From Oscillospiraceae bacterium (GTDB lineage Bacteria; Bacillota; Clostridia; Oscillospirales; CAG-272), in NCBI GenBank assembly GCA_015064855.1, contig SVRK01000005.1:33747-97746 (forward strand): 64,000 nucleotides of DNA. The letters run 5' to 3'. Numbering within the stretch: position 1 is the stretch's first letter; each line of letters begins with the position of its first letter. The translations under genes and the position numbers were made by a program. Shown here piece after piece: positions 6,544 through 58,012 of this stretch. The notes beneath the pieces are model-generated. The model saw only the letters and a list, made by a program, of their open reading frames with translations. It was not told the origin of the DNA and ran no database searches.

Positions 6544-7245
6544 TTAATCATTATTTTGAAAAACCTCGAATTTGTAGCCAACGCCCCAAATTGTACGAAG
6601 CTCCCATTTAGTGGATACGCCTGCAAGCTTTTCGCGTAGGCGCTTGATATGTACGTCAACAGTACGGGAATCTCCTAGGTAATCAAAGCTCCAAACCTTG
6701 TTTAAAAGCTGGTCTCTTGTGAAAACTCTGTTATAGTTTTTAGCAAGGAAGTGGAGAAGCATAAATTCCTTGTTTGGCAAGTCAATGCTTTCACCATTAA
6801 TTTTTAATTCGTGGTTTGATAAGCTGATTTCAAGGTTGTCGAACTTCAAGGTATCCTTGTCCACGTGTGACTCCATAGTGCTATATCTACGAAGAACCGC
6901 TTTAACACGTGCAAGAAGCTCTTGCATATCAAAGGGCTTAACAACGAAGTCGTCAGCACCTAATTCAAGACTGAGAACCTTGTCAAAAACGCCACCCTTT
7001 GCTGTAATCATAATCATCGGCTTGTTTGAGTTTGCTCTAATCTCACGGCAAACGTCTGTGCCGTCCTTTTTAGGAAGCATAAGGTCGAGAAGAACAATGT
7101 CAGGGTCATAGCTTTTGAACATTTGCATACCGCTAATGCCATCGTTAGCAATTTGCACCTCATATCCTTCATTTGTAAAATAAACCTTAATTAGCTCACA
7201 AATATTAACGTCATCATCAATAACAAGCATCTTTGTGCCGAGCAT
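6544..7245 (-). CDS. OmpR/PhoB-family response regulator (receiver + winged-helix)
   Basis: 233-aa ORF. Receiver motifs (LVIDDD, DLMLP, KPF) and a C-terminal trans_reg_C domain (RTVDVHIKRLREKL, WGVGYKF). GGAGG SD. Confidence 0.9.
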   Translation of the reverse strand: MLGTKMLVIDDDVNICELIKVYFTNEGYEVQIANDGISGMQMFKSYDPDIVLLDLMLPKKDGTDVCREIRANSNKPMIMITAKGGVFDKVLSLELGADDFVVKPFDMQELLARVKAVLRRYSTMESHVDKDTLKFDNLEISLSNHELKINGESIDLPNKEFMLLHFLAKNYNRVFTRDQLLNKVWSFDYLGDSRTVDVHIKRLREKLAGVSTKWELRTIWGVGYKFEVFQNND

Positions 7246-7284
7246 AAAATACCTCCGAATAGTTGAATTATTAAATCTTTATGA

Positions 7285-7313
7285 ATTATATCACATAAAA
7301 ATCAATTTGTAAA
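7285..7313 (-). promoter_or_regulatory. candidate sigma-A promoter of the response-regulator gene
   Basis: On the minus strand: TTTACA (7313-7308), 17-nt spacer, TATAAT (7290-7285), preceded by TGA (extended -10). Confidence 0.45.
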
Positions 7314-7379
7314 CAACTTTTTAACAAATAAAAACGAAAAATTAAAGATTAATTAATAAGTTATTCTTATTTTACAATG

Positions 7380-7400
7380 TTTTTGTGAAAATTAGGTGAA
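7380..7400 (-). promoter_or_regulatory. direct-repeat box TTCAC-N6-TTCAC (plus strand GTGAA-AATTAG-GTGAA), candidate response-regulator binding site, copy 1
   Basis: 21-nt exact match (tttttgtgaaaattaggtgaa) with 57953-57973. Both copies lie upstream of minus-strand genes in the same relative orientation, with half-sites 11 bp apart. Confidence 0.5.
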
Positions 7401-7456
7401 GAAATCGTGTGATAATAATAAAAATGTGGAGTTTTTTACTTTTTTTGCCTTTATAC

Positions 7457-7485
7457 TTGCACCTTTGACAAAAATAATGTATAAT
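7457..7485 (+). promoter_or_regulatory. candidate sigma-A promoter of ychF
   Basis: TTGCAC (7457-7462), 17-nt spacer, TATAAT (7480-7485). Confidence 0.45.
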
Positions 7486-7517
7486 TACAATGATAAAATA
7501 TTTTGACGAGGTAAAAA

Positions 7518-8609
7518 ATGAAATTAGGCATAGTTGGATTACCAAACGTAGGTAAAAGCACACTTTTTAATGCATTAACTAACGCAGGGGCACAAAGCGC
7601 GAACTACCCATTCTGTACGATTGAGCCAAACGTTGGCGTTGTCGCAGTTCCGGACTCACGTCTTGACGTTCTTGCAAAGATGTATAATCCCGAGCTCTAT
7701 ACTCCTGCGGTTATTGAGTTTGTTGATATTGCAGGCTTGGTTAAGGGCGCAAGCAAGGGAGAAGGACTTGGTAATAAGTTCCTATCCCATATTCGTGAGG
7801 TTGACGCTATCGTTCACGTTGTGCGTTGCTTTGAAAATAACGATATTATTCACGTTGATGGAAACATAAATCCTCTCCGTGACCTTGAAACTATAAATTT
7901 AGAGCTTATTTTCTCCGATATGGAAATTTTGGAGAGAAGAATAGACAACGTTAAAAAGGCAATGAAGGGTGACAAAACTCTAGCGCCGAAGGTTGAACTT
8001 TATGAAAGAGTTATGAAGACACTTGAGGAAGGCAAGAGCGCAAGAAGCCTTGATTTTAACGAAGAGGAAGCCGCTTGGATTAGTGAGGTTGCACTTCTTT
8101 CAATAAAGCCTGTTATTTATGCCGCAAATATTAGTGAAAGCGATATAGGAAACCTTGACAAAAACAATTTCTATCAAAGCGTACTTGAATTCGCAAAGAG
8201 TGAAAAGAGTGAGGTTATCCCTGTTTGCGCTGAAATTGAGGCAGAAATTGCAGAGCTTGACGACGAGGAAAAGGAAATGTTTTTATCCGACCTCGGTATT
8301 ACCGAAAGCGGTCTTGACCGTCTTATAAAGGCAAGCTATTCACTCCTTGGACTTATCAGCTATTTAACTGCAGGACCAAAAGAGGTTCGTGCTTGGACTA
8401 TTACCAAGGGTACAAAAGCGCCCGGTGCTGCCGGCAAAATCCACTCCGATTTTGAAAGAGGCTTTATCCGTGCAGAGATAGTTTCATTTGATGATTTAGT
8501 TGCTTGTGGCTCAATGAACCAAGCAAAGGAAAAGGGACTTGTTCGCTCCGAAGGCAAGGAGTACGTAATTAACGACGGAGATATAGTTCTATTTAGATTT
8601 AACGTATAA
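7518..8609 (+). CDS. ychF: redox-regulated ATPase YchF (Obg-family GTPase-like)
   Basis: 363-aa ORF. N-terminal [22 protein letters not shown]-domain motifs and a C-terminal TGS-like end ([13 protein letters not shown]). Confidence 0.95.
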
Positions 8610-8694: not shown

Positions 8695-10290
8695 ATGAAA
8701 AAATATTTAAAAAGCATACATACAAGGTATATGCTCACCTTTATGGCTATAATGATTTTGACCGTTTTGATTTTGGGTATAATTATCACTAATATTATCA
8801 GTAGCTTTTCCCTCGATACAAAGCTCAAGGAGCTCTACGAAACAAATCTTCAGGTATCATCATATTTCAAGGTTCAAGAAACAGATGGTAGACTGCCACC
8901 TATCCAAACGGGTGAGGACAAAATTTTTGCTCCGCTTGACGAAACTTTAAATACGGTTTTGTTAATTTCACCACAGGTTGGTATTTTGGTTTTTGATGAG
9001 AATGGTGAGCTTTTGCTTTCCGCCTCAAAGCAAAATGACGAGGTCATAAAAACCAATAAATATGACGAATCAAAAATGGACGAAATTATTGAAAAACAGA
9101 CACTCCCCGACTCTTTTTTAACTAGAATACAAAGAGACAAGGTTGTTTCCTTAAGCGATACAGCTGACGGATATTTTAGTGAAACAGTTTATTTATATGC
9201 AAGTGCAATAACAACAAAGGTCATAAAGGAAGAGCCACCTAAGCTTGACACGGATGTCTCAAGTGATACTGACTTGGACGAAACAGAGTCTTTGCCTGTT
9301 TATGAGGAAAAGCTACTTGGCGCAATTATTTGTTATGACCCGGGAAATACTGAAAACGATAAAATGATGCGCGATATGATGATAGCGATAATTACAACTA
9401 TTTGTTGGATTACGCTGGCTTCACTCGTTGCAATTTATGGCGTTAGTTATTATACAATGAAGCCACTTCGCGAAATCGGTAGGGCAGCAAAAAGCTTCTC
9501 ACGCGGAAAATACGACGTGCGTGTTAAGGTGCGCGGAAACGACGAGCTTGCCGAGCTTGCCGAGTCATTTAACAAAATGGCAATAGCTATTCAGTCAAAG
9601 GACGAAATGCAAAAGAACTTTTTAAGTAACGTTTCTCACGACCTAAAAACTCCAATGACAACGATAGCGGGCTTTGTTGACGGAATTTTAGACGGTGCAA
9701 ATCCACCCGAAAAGGAAGAATATTACTTAAATATCATTAAAAATGAGGTTAAACGCTTGAGTCGTTTGGTTACCTCGCTTCTCGATATTTCAAGACTCCA
9801 GTCTGGAGAGCGCAAGTTTGAGTTTAAAGAATTTAATATGAGCGAGTTAGTTCGCCAAACAGTACTTTCCTTTGAAAAAGCGCTTGAAGAAAAGAAGCTT
9901 GACGTTGAGTTTGATATGGACGATTTTGATATGATGGCATACGGTGATAAGGATGCTATCAACCAAGTTGTATATAATTTCTGTCACAACGCGATTAAGT
10001 TCTCGAACGACGGTGCAAAATACAAGGTTAGCCTAAAATATCAGGACGAAAATACCATCGTATTTAAAATGTATAACGAGGGAATAGGTATTACCGAAGA
10101 AGATTTACCATTTGTATTTGACCGTTTCTTCAAGAGTGATAAATCAAGAGGTCTTGATAAAACTGGAACAGGCTTGGGTCTTTTTATTGCAAAGACTATT
10201 GTTGATGCACACGGGCAAAGCATAAAGGCTGACAGTGAGTTTGGCAAATGGTGTGAGATGTCGTTTACAATTGCCACGAAAGGAGAATAA
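8695..10290 (+). CDS. sensor histidine kinase (2 TM, extracytoplasmic loop, HAMP, HisKA, HATPase_c)
   Basis: 531-aa ORF. TM1 lies near residue 12-38 and TM2 near 225-250. HAMP region, H-box SHDLKTPMT, and N/G boxes (NAIKFS, GTGLGL). Confidence 0.9.
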   Translation: MKKYLKSIHTRYMLTFMAIMILTVLILGIIITNIISSFSLDTKLKELYETNLQVSSYFKVQETDGRLPPIQTGEDKIFAPLDETLNTVLLISPQVGILVFDENGELLLSASKQNDEVIKTNKYDESKMDEIIEKQTLPDSFLTRIQRDKVVSLSDTADGYFSETVYLYASAITTKVIKEEPPKLDTDVSSDTDLDETESLPVYEEKLLGAIICYDPGNTENDKMMRDMMIAIITTICWITLASLVAIYGVSYYTMKPLREIGRAAKSFSRGKYDVRVKVRGNDELAELAESFNKMAIAIQSKDEMQKNFLSNVSHDLKTPMTTIAGFVDGILDGANPPEKEEYYLNIIKNEVKRLSRLVTSLLDISRLQSGERKFEFKEFNMSELVRQTVLSFEKALEEKKLDVEFDMDDFDMMAYGDKDAINQVVYNFCHNAIKFSNDGAKYKVSLKYQDENTIVFKMYNEGIGITEEDLPFVFDRFFKSDKSRGLDKTGTGLGLFIAKTIVDAHGQSIKADSEFGKWCEMSFTIATKGE

Positions 10291-54084: not shown

Positions 54085-56055
54085 TTATTCCAATTCAAAC
54101 GCGCCTGTATAAAGCTGATAATATTTACCCCTTTGGGCTATCAAGCTTTCGTGTGAGCCGCGCTCGATAATGCGTCCTTGCTCAAGCACCATAATAACGT
54201 CGGAGTTTTGAATGGTAGATAAGCGGTGCGCTATAACAAATACAGTTCTGCCCTTCATAAGCGAGTCCATACCCGCTTGTACTATTGCCTCGGTTCTTGT
54301 ATCGATGGATGAGGTAGCCTCGTCCATTATCATAACAGGTGGGTCGGCAACTGCTGCGCGTGCAATAGAAATAAGCTGTCTTTGTCCTTGCGAAAGCCCC
54401 GAGCCGTCGCCCTTTAGCATTGTGTTATATCCGTCAGGTAGCATCTCGATAAACGAGTGTGCGTTTGCCAATTTTGCAGCCGCTATACATTCTTCATCGG
54501 TTGCATCAAGCTTACCGTAACGAATATTATCCATTACAGTGCCTGTAAAGAGGTTAACGTCCTGTAATATCACACCCAAGGAGCGCCTTAAATCGTCCTT
54601 CTTAATCTTGTTGATATTGATGCCGTCATATCTTATCTTTCCGTCTGCAATGTCGTAAAAACGGTTTATTAGGTTGGTTATAGTTGTCTTACCCGCACCG
54701 GTAGCACCTACAAATGCAATCTTTTGACCGGGCTCGGCATAAATTGAAACGTCGTGTAGTACAATCTTTTCGGGAACGTAGCCAAAGTCAACCTCGTTTA
54801 AGCGAACATCACCGCGAACACGTGTATAGGTAACAGTACCATCACCGTGTGGATGCTTCCAAGCCCAAATGCCTGTGCGCTTGCCAGCCTCACGAAGCTC
54901 GCCGTTCTCGTCATATTCTGCATCAACCAAGGTAACGTATCCCTCGTCAACCTCGTCCTTCTCGTCAAGCATATCAAATATACGCTCCGCACCTGCAAGC
55001 GCCATTGTAATTGCGTTTGCTTGTTGTGATAGCTGGGAAACGTTGTTTGTAAATTGCTTGGAAAGACCAAGGAATGCAACTGCTGTACCGATAGTAAATA
55101 CAGAGTCCTCAATGCCAAGGAATGTAGCAAATGCAGGGTTATATTTACCAACAAGCATAGTGCCAACGAACACCAAAACAACGTATAAAACGTGTCCAAT
55201 GTTATTCATAATAGGCATAAGAGTGTTAGCTCTTGTATTTGCCTTTGTTGCATGCTCACAGAGCTTTGTATTTAATTCGTTAAATCTCTTTTTGCTCTTT
55301 GGCTCGTAGTTAAATACCTTAACTACCTTTTGACCGTTAATCATTTCCTCAATATATCCCTCGGTTTCACCTAAGGAGATTTGTTGACGGCGGAAGTGCT
55401 TAGCACCCGAGCCACCGATTGTCTTTGCCACAAAGCTCATAACAAGCATACCGCCAATAATCACAAGAGCCATATAGAAGCTCATATAGAACATATAGCA
55501 GGTGACTGTCACAAGAATAATAACCGTCGTTATAATTTGTGGTAGCGATTGAGAAATTAGCTGTCTTAACGAGTCAATATCGTTTGTATAGTGGGACATA
55601 ATATCGCCACGCGTGTTTCTGTCAAAATAACTAATAGGAAGCTTCTGCATCTTTTTAAACATCTTTGTGCGTAGCTTGTGTAGGCAACCCTGAGTTACCA
55701 CAGCCATTGTCCTTGCTTGAACGAAGTTTGAGATTAATCCAATAAGATAAATAGTAGCAAGAAGTCCGACGGCGATAGCAACCTTGGGGAAATATTCATC
55801 CATAGCATCAGACACCGAAAGTCCTTCACGGATAGCATTTATCGCAGTTGATGCGTTATCAATAACAAATCTTTGGAAAAGAGAAGGGGACGCCGCCGCC
55901 AAAGCACTTAAGCAAATGCATATAAACACAATAATAAATGGAACACGATAGAAGGAAAGAAGCATTTTTAAAAGTCTTGTAAACGTGCCCTTTTTAACCT
56001 TCTTTAAGGGTCTGCCCATCATGGGCTGGCGAGGATTTTTTACCGTTTTATTCAT
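54085..56055 (-). CDS. ABC transporter ATP-binding/permease fusion protein (type I exporter half-transporter)
   Basis: 656-aa ORF. Six-TM domain plus NBD (Walker A GATGAGKTT, LSQGQRQL, IMDEATS). It contains an insertion before the NBD. Confidence 0.92.
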   Translation of the reverse strand: MNKTVKNPRQPMMGRPLKKVKKGTFTRLLKMLLSFYRVPFIIVFICICLSALAAASPSLFQRFVIDNASTAINAIREGLSVSDAMDEYFPKVAIAVGLLATIYLIGLISNFVQARTMAVVTQGCLHKLRTKMFKKMQKLPISYFDRNTRGDIMSHYTNDIDSLRQLISQSLPQIITTVIILVTVTCYMFYMSFYMALVIIGGMLVMSFVAKTIGGSGAKHFRRQQISLGETEGYIEEMINGQKVVKVFNYEPKSKKRFNELNTKLCEHATKANTRANTLMPIMNNIGHVLYVVLVFVGTMLVGKYNPAFATFLGIEDSVFTIGTAVAFLGLSKQFTNNVSQLSQQANAITMALAGAERIFDMLDEKDEVDEGYVTLVDAEYDENGELREAGKRTGIWAWKHPHGDGTVTYTRVRGDVRLNEVDFGYVPEKIVLHDVSIYAEPGQKIAFVGATGAGKTTITNLINRFYDIADGKIRYDGININKIKKDDLRRSLGVILQDVNLFTGTVMDNIRYGKLDATDEECIAAAKLANAHSFIEMLPDGYNTMLKGDGSGLSQGQRQLISIARAAVADPPVMIMDEATSSIDTRTEAIVQAGMDSLMKGRTVFVIAHRLSTIQNSDVIMVLEQGRIIERGSHESLIAQRGKYYQLYTGAFELE

Positions 56056-57872
56056 TGCAGGCTCGCCCCCTTTATTTGTGAGTTATATATCTCGCGATAG
56101 ATATCGTTATTCTCTAAAAGCGAATCGTGGTTGCCGATAGCGTTGATTTGTCCATCATCCAAAATAATGATGACGTCAGCATCCTCAACGCTTGAAATTC
56201 TTTGCGCGATAATGATTTTTGTGGTGTTTGGAATTTCCTCACGCATAGCCTTGCGAATTAAAGCGTCAGTTCTTGTGTCAACCGCGCTTGTTGAGTCGTC
56301 AAGAATAAGTATTTTAGGCTTTTTAAGTAATGCCCTTGCAATACAAAGACGTTGCTTTTGTCCGCCTGATACGTTTGTTCCGCCTTGCTCAATGTAAGTA
56401 TCGTATTTTTCTGGGAACTTTTCAATAAATTCGCTAGCACACGCAAGCTTGCAAGCGTGTGCAATTTCTTCGTCTGTTGCATTTTCGTTGCCCCAACGTA
56501 GGTTTTCATTTATAGTACCGGAGAAAAGCACGTTCTTTTGTAGAACAACGCTAACCGCATCACGTAAAGCCACCATATCATAGTCCTTTACGTTAATGCC
56601 ACCGACTAAAACCTCACCCTCTGTTGCATCATAAAGACGAGGGATAAGAGAAATCAAGGTTGATTTAGCACTACCGGTCGCCCCTATAATGCCAACCGTT
56701 TGACCCGATTCAATCTTTAGACTAACGTTGTTTAAAGCGTTTTTCTCGGCTCTTTTTGCGTATTTGAAGCTTACGTTTTTAAATTCAATAGATCCGTTTT
56801 TAATTGTATCAATAGGATTTTCGGAGTTTTTAATTGTCGTTTCCTCGTTGAGAACCTCACAAATACGGCGTGCACTTTCCGCTGACATTGTCACCATTAC
56901 AAAAATCATTGAAAGCATCATTAAGCTCATTAGCATTTGCATACCGTATGTAAGCAGGGTAGAGAAGTTACCTATGGCAAACGCCTTACCACCGGAGGAG
57001 ATAAGAAGAAACGAGCCGAAGAACAAAATGCCAACCATGAGCGAATACATACAAAATTGCATAATTGGAGAGTTAAAAGCAAGAATTTTTTCTGCGCGAA
57101 CGAAATCTGCACGTACATTATCGGATGATACCTCGAATTTTTCGGATTCGTGATTTTCGCGTACAAATGATTTTACAACGCGCATGCCCTGTACGTTTTC
57201 TTGAACTGAGTTATTTAATTTGTCGTATTTTTTAAATACCTTTTTAAAGATAGGCATAGCTTTTCTCGCTACCATAATAAGTGTAAATAGCAGAATCGGA
57301 ACGACTATAACAAAAATCCACGCCATTTTTCCACCAACAGAAAACGCCATAATTATTGAGAAAATAAACATAAATGGCGAACGAACAGCGGTTCTTATAA
57401 TCATCATAAATGACTGCTGTACGTTTGTAACGTCCGTTGTCATACGGGTAACTAGGCTGGAGGATGAGAAATTGTCAATATTTTCAAAAGAAAACTCTTG
57501 GGTTTTATTGAACATAGATGCTCTTAAATTCTTTGCAAATCCGCAAGAAGCACGTGAGCAGTGAACGCCTGCCAAAGCACCGAACATAAGAGAAAGAAGT
57601 GCAAAGCAGATAAGAATAGCAGAGAAAACCAAAATAACAGAGGTTGTTTCTCTCTCGCCTATTAAATTTATAAGCCATCTGGTCAAGGTTATTCTATCAA
57701 GAGAAGCCCCCTCGACACCATTTGATGCCTCAATAAATGTGATAAGCTCACCGGCTATTGCCGGAATCATGCACTCCATTACAACCTCAAAAAGAACCAG
57801 TAACGGAGAAAGAATAGCACTCAATTTATATTTGCCAACGTACTTAAACAATGTTTTAAAGTTTTTAAGCAC
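56052..57872 (-). CDS. ABC transporter ATP-binding/permease fusion protein (partner half-transporter)
   Basis: 606-aa ORF with a GTG start after AAGGGG. Walker A GATGSAKST, VSGGQKQR, ILDDSTS. It overlaps the downstream partner by 4 nt. Confidence 0.92.
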   Translation of the reverse strand: MLKNFKTLFKYVGKYKLSAILSPLLVLFEVVMECMIPAIAGELITFIEASNGVEGASLDRITLTRWLINLIGERETTSVILVFSAILICFALLSLMFGALAGVHCSRASCGFAKNLRASMFNKTQEFSFENIDNFSSSSLVTRMTTDVTNVQQSFMMIIRTAVRSPFMFIFSIIMAFSVGGKMAWIFVIVVPILLFTLIMVARKAMPIFKKVFKKYDKLNNSVQENVQGMRVVKSFVRENHESEKFEVSSDNVRADFVRAEKILAFNSPIMQFCMYSLMVGILFFGSFLLISSGGKAFAIGNFSTLLTYGMQMLMSLMMLSMIFVMVTMSAESARRICEVLNEETTIKNSENPIDTIKNGSIEFKNVSFKYAKRAEKNALNNVSLKIESGQTVGIIGATGSAKSTLISLIPRLYDATEGEVLVGGINVKDYDMVALRDAVSVVLQKNVLFSGTINENLRWGNENATDEEIAHACKLACASEFIEKFPEKYDTYIEQGGTNVSGGQKQRLCIARALLKKPKILILDDSTSAVDTRTDALIRKAMREEIPNTTKIIIAQRISSVEDADVIIILDDGQINAIGNHDSLLENNDIYREIYNSQIKGASLQ

Positions 57873-57907: not shown

Positions 57908-57936
57908 ATTATAGCATTGTATAAATTTAATGTCAA
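57908..57936 (-). promoter_or_regulatory. consensus sigma-A promoter of the ABC exporter operon
   Basis: On the minus strand: TTGACA (57936-57931), 17-nt spacer, TATAAT (57913-57908). Confidence 0.55.
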
Positions 57937-57952
57937 TTAGATAGTCTAAACT

Positions 57953-57973
57953 TTTTTGTGAAAATTAGGTGAA
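57953..57973 (-). promoter_or_regulatory. direct-repeat box TTCAC-N6-TTCAC, candidate response-regulator binding site, copy 2
   Basis: 21-nt exact match with 7380-7400. It lies 17 nt upstream of the -35 of the ABC operon promoter. Confidence 0.5.
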
Positions 57974-57997
57974 AAGAAAAAGGAGCATAATGCTCCT
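57972..57997 (-). terminator. intrinsic terminator of mrnC
   Basis: Stem AGGAGCA / TGCTCCT followed by TTTTCTTTT on the minus strand. Confidence 0.65.
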
Positions 57998-58012
57998 TTC
58001 GGACAAGAAAAT

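Follow-up and report, generated by a model that had tools for sequence, protein, structure and literature searches.

A conserved TTCACA direct repeat as a candidate operator linking an OmpR/PhoB-family regulator gene to a distant ABC exporter operon in Oscillospirales

INTRODUCTION

A 21-nt sequence, TTTTTGTGAAAATTAGGTGAA on the plus strand, occurs at positions 7380-7400 and 57953-57973 of a 64-kb stretch of DNA from an uncultured Oscillospiraceae bacterium. This stretch, referred to here as the window, comprises 64,000 nt (C38:33747-97746) of an assembly of 2,024,137 bp in 38 contigs, with 38.9% G+C. One copy precedes the gene of an OmpR/PhoB-family response regulator, RR1; the other precedes a two-gene ABC exporter operon 50 kb away. 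The arrangement raises the question of whether the two copies act as one operator and, if so, which protein binds it. An earlier note on this DNA had proposed that RR1, together with the sensor kinase HK1, controls the exporter. To our knowledge, the natural substrates and the regulation of exporters of this kind, the TM287/288 type, are mostly unknown.

MATERIALS AND METHODS

RR1 orthologue loci were taken from 40 related genomes, and exporter loci from the same genome set; RR1 relatives were confirmed in at least 593 of 599 matched stretches. A site matrix was built from the RR1 and exporter sites; as the null, the highest score within 250 nt upstream was taken for each of 1,563 genes of the source genome. 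Sixty further motif sites from the genus were fetched to identify the downstream genes. The handles G, C and L denote genomes (G000 being the source), contigs and loci.

RESULTS

The 21-mer occurs twice in the genome

As the earlier note had stated, the 21-mer was found exactly twice in the window, both times in intergenic DNA, and the minus strand of both copies reads TTCAC-CTAATT-TTCAC, in the same orientation relative to the genes downstream. No third copy was present in the window, even at three mismatches, and none of 100 dinucleotide shuffles of the window contained two matches. A search of the whole genome had been named beforehand as the test that could expose the 21-mer as a generic repeat. 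It returned, again, exactly two copies, and comparison of 60 nt on each side showed their flanks to be unrelated. With two copies in 2.02 Mb and no similarity beyond the core, a dispersed or mobile-element repeat was ruled out.

The match by itself is nevertheless of limited weight. The probability of an exact 21-mer pair arising by chance in 64 kb is about 0.003 by our rough estimate (well below 0.01 by that of the earlier note); over a 2-Mb AT-rich genome, however, roughly 2-3 such pairs would be expected. The argument therefore rests on comparative evidence and not on the identity of the 21-mer alone. Only in the source genome do the two boxes share both spacer and A-tail. The closest relatives carry other spacers at the RR1 site, and in genome G016 the spacers differ between the loci (ACGTTT at RR1, AAAATT at the exporter). 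Identity at 21 of 21 positions exceeds what shared half-sites require, at roughly 1 in 1,000 by the matrix, and may reflect chance favoured by the way in which the finding was selected, or recent conversion. The alignments indicate that 11-12 of the 21 bases are under selection, and that identity of the others is peculiar to the source genome.

Repeats of a different kind were observed elsewhere in the assembly. Near-identical 17-mers, TTCACAAAAA(G/A/C)TTAACA, occur about 200 nt from several contig ends (G000 C1:200, C10:204, C21:8460, C36:4191, C29:205, C17:2017, C19:20620, C5:156452). Their probable origin is a multi-copy element, for instance an rRNA operon or insertion sequence, at which the assembly broke.

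A direct repeat is conserved at both loci within the genus

Comparison across the genus reduced the 21-mer to a functional core, the direct repeat TTCACA-N5-TTCACA with 11-nt phasing, within which the spacer between half-sites drifts. Co-conservation of the box in related genomes had been put forward as a check, and the sites scored beyond the 99th percentile of the null at 19 of 21 RR1 loci and 16 of 22 exporter loci in the genus. Outside it, matrix scoring of the related loci showed the exporter site to be absent and the RR1 box mostly gone; the two sites share this distribution. Positions of the core and its surroundings are collected in Table 1.

Table 1. Features of the regulator and exporter loci (window positions, unless a contig is given)
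Feature	Position	Strand	Remarks
RR1, OmpR/PhoB-family response regulator, WalR-like, phospho-acceptor Asp54	6544..7245	-	Pfam Response_reg + Trans_reg_C
Predicted proximal sigma-A promoter of RR1, TTTACA-17-TATAAT + TG motif	7285..7313	-	11/12 match; conserved in genus alignment
-10-like TAAAAT with no -35; candidate box-dependent RR1 promoter	7369..7374	-	9 nt after box; promoter predicted
Operator core (predicted) at regulator locus	7384..7400	-	Inside 21-mer 7380-7400; kept at 19/21 genus loci, p<0.01 each
Third, weaker half-site CACAC	7407..7411	-	11 nt upstream of distal TTCAC; YACAC/CACAC in phase in genus alignment
ychF, divergent from RR1, now upstream of kinase gene	7518..8609	+	TIGR00092, 505 bits
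HK1 sensor kinase	8695..10290	+	TM, ~190-aa outer domain, TM, HAMP, HisKA, HATPase; no cytoplasmic PAS
ABC half-transporter 2, TM288-like	54085..56055	-	4-nt overlap with half-transporter 1 gene
ABC half-transporter 1, TM287-like	56052..57872	-	GTG start at 57872; Pfam ABC_membrane + ABC_tran
Predicted sigma-A promoter of exporter operon, TTGACA-17-TATAAT + TG motif	57908..57936	-	12/12 match; conserved in orthologues
Operator core (predicted) at exporter, TTCACC-TAATT-TTCACA	57957..57973	-	Inside 21-mer 57953-57973; kept at 16/22 genus orthologue loci, p<0.01 each
Intrinsic terminator of mini-RNase III gene	57978..58000	-	Directly 5' of box; 10-pair stem, then T run
RR2, of htrA-RR2-HK2 operon	G000 C4:221753-222454		Resembles CssRS secretion-stress system

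Upstream of RR1, the half-sites TTCAC and TTCACA, at -124 to -167, were retained across a six-base interval that varied freely, and a weaker third repeat, YACAC, was found one helical turn further upstream. Conservation of this third element in the form CACAC may have another cause, because the plus strand there overlaps TGTGATAAT. An A following TTCAC was no part of the search pattern, yet was present at 21 of 31 and 29 of 31 collected sites in the two half-sites; the repeat unit is therefore the hexamer TTCACA.

In 15 species, the -35 element at the exporter comes 24-26 nt after the start of the proximal TTCAC; in two, the distance is 36-37 nt. The longer class has one helical turn more, and the sequence between box and -35 is unconserved. 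A factor that has to keep to one helical face with respect to RNA polymerase would be expected to give such spacing. Across 26 genus genomes there were 88 occurrences of the 17-nt pattern TTCAC-N6-TTCACA and 14 of its reversal.

These observations bear directly on the possibility that the two copies match by chance and share no function. Besides the 2-3 pairs expected per genome, the number of TTCAC-N6-TTCAC sites in the source genome (5) equals the expectation from base composition (~4.7), as such a view would have it. It does not account for half-sites kept at both loci across some 20 species, for a fixed phasing to the promoter, or for a motif that is six-fold over its reversed control and whose sites are biased to intergenic DNA. 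On conservation, phasing and the reversed-control count, we regard a chance match as effectively refuted.

Several features of an OmpR/PhoB-type operator are represented here. TTCAC(A) appears twice, 11 nt apart, with the weaker third repeat at RR1; the site lies at or upstream of the -35 or -10 of predicted promoters with conserved phase; and a regulator of the family, RR1, is encoded beside one site. Taken together, the alignments argue that the 21-mer is a real, evolutionarily conserved response-regulator operator of OmpR/PhoB architecture.

The exporter locus

Analysis of the exporter locus largely reproduced the layout described earlier: on the minus strand, the terminator of the mini-RNase III gene, the box, TTGACA-17-TATAAT and a GTG start are followed by the two-gene exporter. 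One detail required correction, the gap between 21-mer and -35 being 16 nt and not 17. The box reads TTCACC-TAATT-TTCACA-AAAA (57973-57953). The GTG start is preceded by a ribosome-binding site and aligns with ATG starts in the orthologues. All gene calls stood: RR1 as an OmpR-family regulator, HK1 as a HAMP-HisKA-HATPase kinase, the exporter genes as fused ABC half-transporters, and YchF and mini-RNase III. For half-transporter 1 the best prokaryotic solved structure was TM287 (3qf4_A, 414 bits), and for half-transporter 2 it was TM288 (3qf4_B, 422 bits); eukaryotic chains scored above both (ABCB1/ABCB4, up to 463 bits, and ABCB, up to 450 bits, respectively). Among sequencing runs matching the source sequence there were only DNA metagenomes and no RNA run.

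The exporter promoter, with its perfect consensus elements and TG motif, may need no activator. This would suit a reading in which RR1 binds the box but represses or modulates the exporter promoter instead of activating it, and WalR-type regulators are reported to do both (PMC9210968). Against this, the site lies wholly upstream of the -35, overlapping neither -35, -10 nor start, and a phase that is kept after insertion of one helical turn is the signature of contact with RNA polymerase, not of occlusion. A repressor or modulator mode thus appears quite unlikely, and activation is retained in the model below.

The regulator locus and its rearrangements

At the regulator locus, the box is situated in the 272-nt divergent spacer between RR1 and ychF, 139 nt before the RR1 start. 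A position just upstream of a -35, which the earlier note gave as frequent for such sites, does not hold at the regulator gene, where about 70 nt separate the box from the predicted sigma-A -35 downstream. A TA(A/G)AAT element does, however, occur at a fixed distance of exactly 9 nt from the RR1 box in 14 genus sequences, and it looks as if the box serves a separate promoter that has no -35.

The only neighbours of RR1 and HK1 are trpS, ychF and rlmL. The listed rlmL frame opens with a GTG at 10235, so that the last 56 nt of the kinase gene (10235-10290) lie within it; the true rlmL start is probably further downstream.

Three arrangements were found in the genus: canonical, with the ychF-RR1 pair inverted, and with HK1 missing. 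Relatives with RR1 at 86-88% identity show the canonical order trpS> <ychF RR1> HK1> rlmL>. The window has trpS> <RR1 ychF> HK1> rlmL> (6544-8609, compared with loci L068, L016-L022 and L023-L028), and inversion of the ychF-RR1 pair alone explains the separation of RR1 from HK1. The kinase encoded at 8695-10290 had been named as the partner of RR1. An HK1 orthologue directly follows RR1 in 59 of 80 related loci in public genomes, among the matches listed, often with ychF divergent upstream. This conserved adjacency indicates that RR1 and HK1 are a true cognate pair.

In one clade of the genus (G021, G013, G023, G022 and G011; loci L023-L028), HK1 is missing and RR1 is followed directly by rlmL. 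The best kinase match in these genomes is a paralogue, HK2, with 30-36% identity in the catalytic half only. RR1 persists there, as do its unchanged DNA-binding domain and the upstream box, while the receiver pocket is eroding: D11 is replaced by S or N in three species, and D54 by E in one (L028). Within the genus and beyond it, the recognition helix of RR1 does not vary, whereas the upstream box is mostly gone outside the genus.

Further genes preceded by the motif

In the source genome, TTCAC-N6-TTCAC showed no enrichment by count; only the placement of the sites is non-random. All five are intergenic, sense-oriented and 47-139 nt before a gene, in a genome of which by a crude measure 9% is non-coding. 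The five downstream genes encode RR1, the exporter, a polysaccharide deacetylase-domain lipoprotein, an M20 peptidase and a membrane Zn-metallopeptidase (PF04298). The deacetylase lipoprotein was the top site, with a box in eight genomes (the source and seven others), followed by the M20 peptidase in six (the source and five others). A box was also present before citrate synthase in five other genomes of the genus, and both citrate synthase genes of the source genome have weaker variants. All these citrate synthase promoters repeat the arrangement seen at RR1, of box, 9 nt and -10. Since the same motif precedes the deacetylase lipoprotein, M20 peptidase and citrate synthase genes, it would define a small regulon that extends beyond the exporter. 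No autolysin or other cell-wall hydrolase was found among the predicted targets.

The box stands 12-19 nt from the -35 at the deacetylase, compared with 24-26 nt at the exporter. This lack of uniformity among targets counts against the scheme set out below.

Other conserved elements were seen near these boxes. TGTCAA (TTGACA on the other strand) is kept 20-22 nt upstream of the box at the deacetylase and citrate synthase promoters (G000 C5:106118-106123; L169, L180, L188, L215, L176-L217), and may represent either an additional half-site in inverted orientation or the -35 of a divergent promoter. Directly 5' of the M20 peptidase box, GTCTCA-N6-TTTTCGG is conserved and is followed by a long unconserved leader (G000 C4:119588-119617; L194, L198, L208, L212, L218).

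Candidate binding proteins

The source genome encodes five OmpR-family regulators. RR1 had the highest score of the five against the YycF/WalR model, its best NCBIfam match (237.7 bits, cut-off 340); its paralogue RR2 scored 193.3 and the others 151.7 or less, and neither RR1 nor RR2 reached the curated equivalog level. The best NCBIfam match of HK1 was WalK (244.5 bits, cut-off 725), to which the catalytic half alone matched. RR1 and RR2 are both present in all genomes of the genus. RR2 is encoded on another contig, in an operon with an htrA-like protease and HK2 (G000 C4:219995-223893; L147-L166) that looks CssRS-like.

RR2 has to be considered as the binder of a real operator, either in a cascade over the exporter and the RR1 gene or through sites that both regulators share. 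The htrA-like gene is preceded, at a distance of 46-121 nt, by a related box, TTCA(T/A)-N6-(T/G)TCACA, which reaches at least the 99th null percentile at 17 of 19 genus loci. At the exporter, the minus strand of the 21-mer reads TTTTCACC-TAA-TTTTCACA, in which TTTTCACA is the canonical Bacillus subtilis CssR box as quoted in PMC6749698. At the regulator locus there is the proximal TTTTCACA octamer alone, the base 5' of the distal half-site being C (CTTCACC); both copies contain TTTTCAC. The related htrA box and these octamers mean that RR2 could be the binder, and HK2 is the nearest kinase paralogue in the clade that lacks HK1.

Other features separate the two proteins. In 17 of 19 species, the htrA sites have T or A as fifth base of the distal half-site; all 31 RR1 and exporter sites, a collection biased by the search pattern, have C. 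This split suggests two classes of site for two proteins. In the recognition helix, RR2 is changed at three positions that PhoB-type helices keep (HIKILRKSL, compared with HIKRLREKL in RR1). Finally, a site conserved before a regulator gene usually belongs to that regulator. RR2 is on these grounds an unlikely binder, though one to be kept in mind, and RR1 remains preferred.

A half-site of this type may not be confined to these two regulators. In three genomes of the genus (G004, G016 and G006; L187, L207 and L211), a triple repeat, TTCACAAACAA-TTCACAA-TTCACAAACAA, precedes an RR3-like regulator gene, so a third regulator may use TTCACA-type half-sites.

The box could also belong to an unrelated factor of the CodY, Rex or Spo0A type, or be a promoter element such as a UP-like A/T tract. 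TTCACAA is also the Rex half-site, and AATTTTCACAAAA resembles the CodY motif; the motif matches include citrate synthase and a pyruvate formate-lyase gene. The repeat is direct and not inverted, however, with no TGTGAA partner on the same strand. The position of the CodY G is occupied by C at 31 of 31 sites, the extra G of Spo0A boxes (TTCGACA) was never seen here, and the conserved distal TTCAC is unexplained by the CodY, Rex or Spo0A motifs. Explanations of this group are, overall, highly improbable. Sites for Rex, CRP/FNR, CodY and Spo0A in particular were ruled out by the symmetry of the repeat and its invariant bases.

We consider RR1, with its cognate kinase HK1, to be the most likely binder, and it is probable, though well short of assured, that the box links RR1 to the exporter and a small regulon. 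Dimers of an OmpR/PhoB-family response regulator would bind TTCACA-N5-TTCACA head-to-tail with 11-bp phasing. At RR1, the box would take the place of a -35 in a distal promoter with the order box, 9 nt and TAAAAT, and phosphorylated RR1 would thereby switch on its own gene above the basal level given by the downstream sigma-A promoter. At the exporter, it would span roughly -72 to -56, counted from the start that TTGACA-17-TATAAT predicts, on a fixed face of the helix, as an upstream activator site of the class I type. In this scheme, the identity of the binding protein, the sign of its effect and the points at which transcription begins are predictions from sequence. The link between regulator and exporter that was proposed at the outset thus gains support from a box conserved at both loci and from phase-preserving spacing at the exporter, with RR1 as its putative mediator. 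Two further observations count against the scheme: one clade retains RR1 and its box although HK1 is missing, and RR1 scores below the curated WalR cut-off.

DISCUSSION

The analysis provides a regulon that can be put to the test, for a two-component system that uncultured Clostridia of gut and rumen have widely conserved, and names a TM287/288-type exporter as a candidate for control by a signal. The genus also offers a natural series for the rewiring of regulator and operator, with the operon intact, split by inversion, or deprived of its kinase. The kind of control envisaged, an OmpR/PhoB-family regulator acting on a direct-repeat operator in a small regulon, is sound but ordinary for bacteria, and the finding leaves concepts of gene regulation unchanged.

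Several known systems share parts of this arrangement. In HssRS-HrtAB, an OmpR-family regulator acts at a direct repeat, GTTCATATT-N2-GTTCATATT, with 11-nt phasing, and its target is an ABC efflux operon. The likeness extends to the family of the regulator, the 11-nt direct repeat and an ABC exporter as target. HrtAB, however, is of the FtsX type and adjoins its regulator genes, whereas the exporter here is a TM287/288-type heterodimer encoded 50 kb away.

Pho systems resemble the present one in their direct repeats and 11-nt phasing. TTCACA fits the B. subtilis PhoP hexamer, TT(A/T/C)ACA, and PhoB-dependent promoters have the layout of box, about 10 nt and -10, with no -35. The predicted distal promoter of RR1 and those of citrate synthase share this layout, with 9 nt between box and -10. 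Among solved structures, RegX3 is closest to RR1 and MtrA comes next. The pho boxes of Streptomyces likewise consist of 11-nt direct repeat units (PMC2275107). Unlike in pho systems, no phosphate-transport gene was found beside RR1 and HK1 or among the top motif matches, and RR1 scored 217 bits against the PhoB model, below the cut-off of 296.

CssR of B. subtilis activates htrA and htrB from just upstream of the -35 (PMC6749698). The exporter-locus 21-mer contains the CssR box, TTTTCACA, exactly once, plus TTTTCACC, and CssRS is autoregulated, as is predicted here for RR1. The differences are that RR1 and HK1 have no protease neighbour, the linkage to htrA and a related box of its own being found with RR2, and that the targets predicted here are not quality-control proteases.

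The broadest likeness is to WalRK, whose models were the best NCBIfam matches of RR1 and HK1. The WalR consensus is TGTWAH-N5-TGTWAH (PMC9210968). Read on the other strand, the window box is TGTGAA-N5-GGTGAA and the genus consensus TGTGAA-N5-TGTGAA, again two hexamers separated by N5. The fourth position of the hexamer is G, and not A or T, so that the window box matches the WalR hexamers at 5/6 and 4/6 positions, and the genus consensus at 5/6 in both. HK1 consists of an outer sensor domain followed by HAMP, HisKA and HATPase, and resembles Clostridioides difficile WalK in having no cytoplasmic PAS (PMC9210968). The C. difficile Wal operon ends in an RNA-modification gene (PMC9210968), and such a gene follows the kinase in both cases, truA2 there and rlmL here. 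When the Wal system is switched on in C. difficile, the peptidoglycan deacetylase gene pgdA is induced (PMC9210968); a peptidoglycan or polysaccharide deacetylase is thus a prime target in both systems, by prediction in the present one. The regulator, moreover, is kept throughout the order.

The two systems differ in that RR1 and HK1 fall below the curated cut-offs, and there is neither a walA gene, as in C. difficile, nor a yycHIJ accessory gene. A heterodimeric ABC exporter and citrate synthase are among the predicted targets, no cell-wall hydrolase was found there, and the kinase has been lost in one clade of the genus. Neither citrate synthase nor the M20 peptidase suits a regulon centred on remodelling of the cell wall. 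We put forward, as a tentative proposal that is more doubtful than the operator itself, that RR1-HK1 may correspond in Oscillospirales to WalRK, the essential envelope system, with a plastic wiring. The kinase would have come to lie behind ychF through the inversion in the present lineage, and in a sister clade it would be lost while regulator, operator and regulon persist and the receiver pocket degenerates. The operator would be shifted to TGTGAA-N5-TGTGAA, and the regulon would couple a peptidoglycan deacetylase and a TM287/288-type exporter to citrate synthase.
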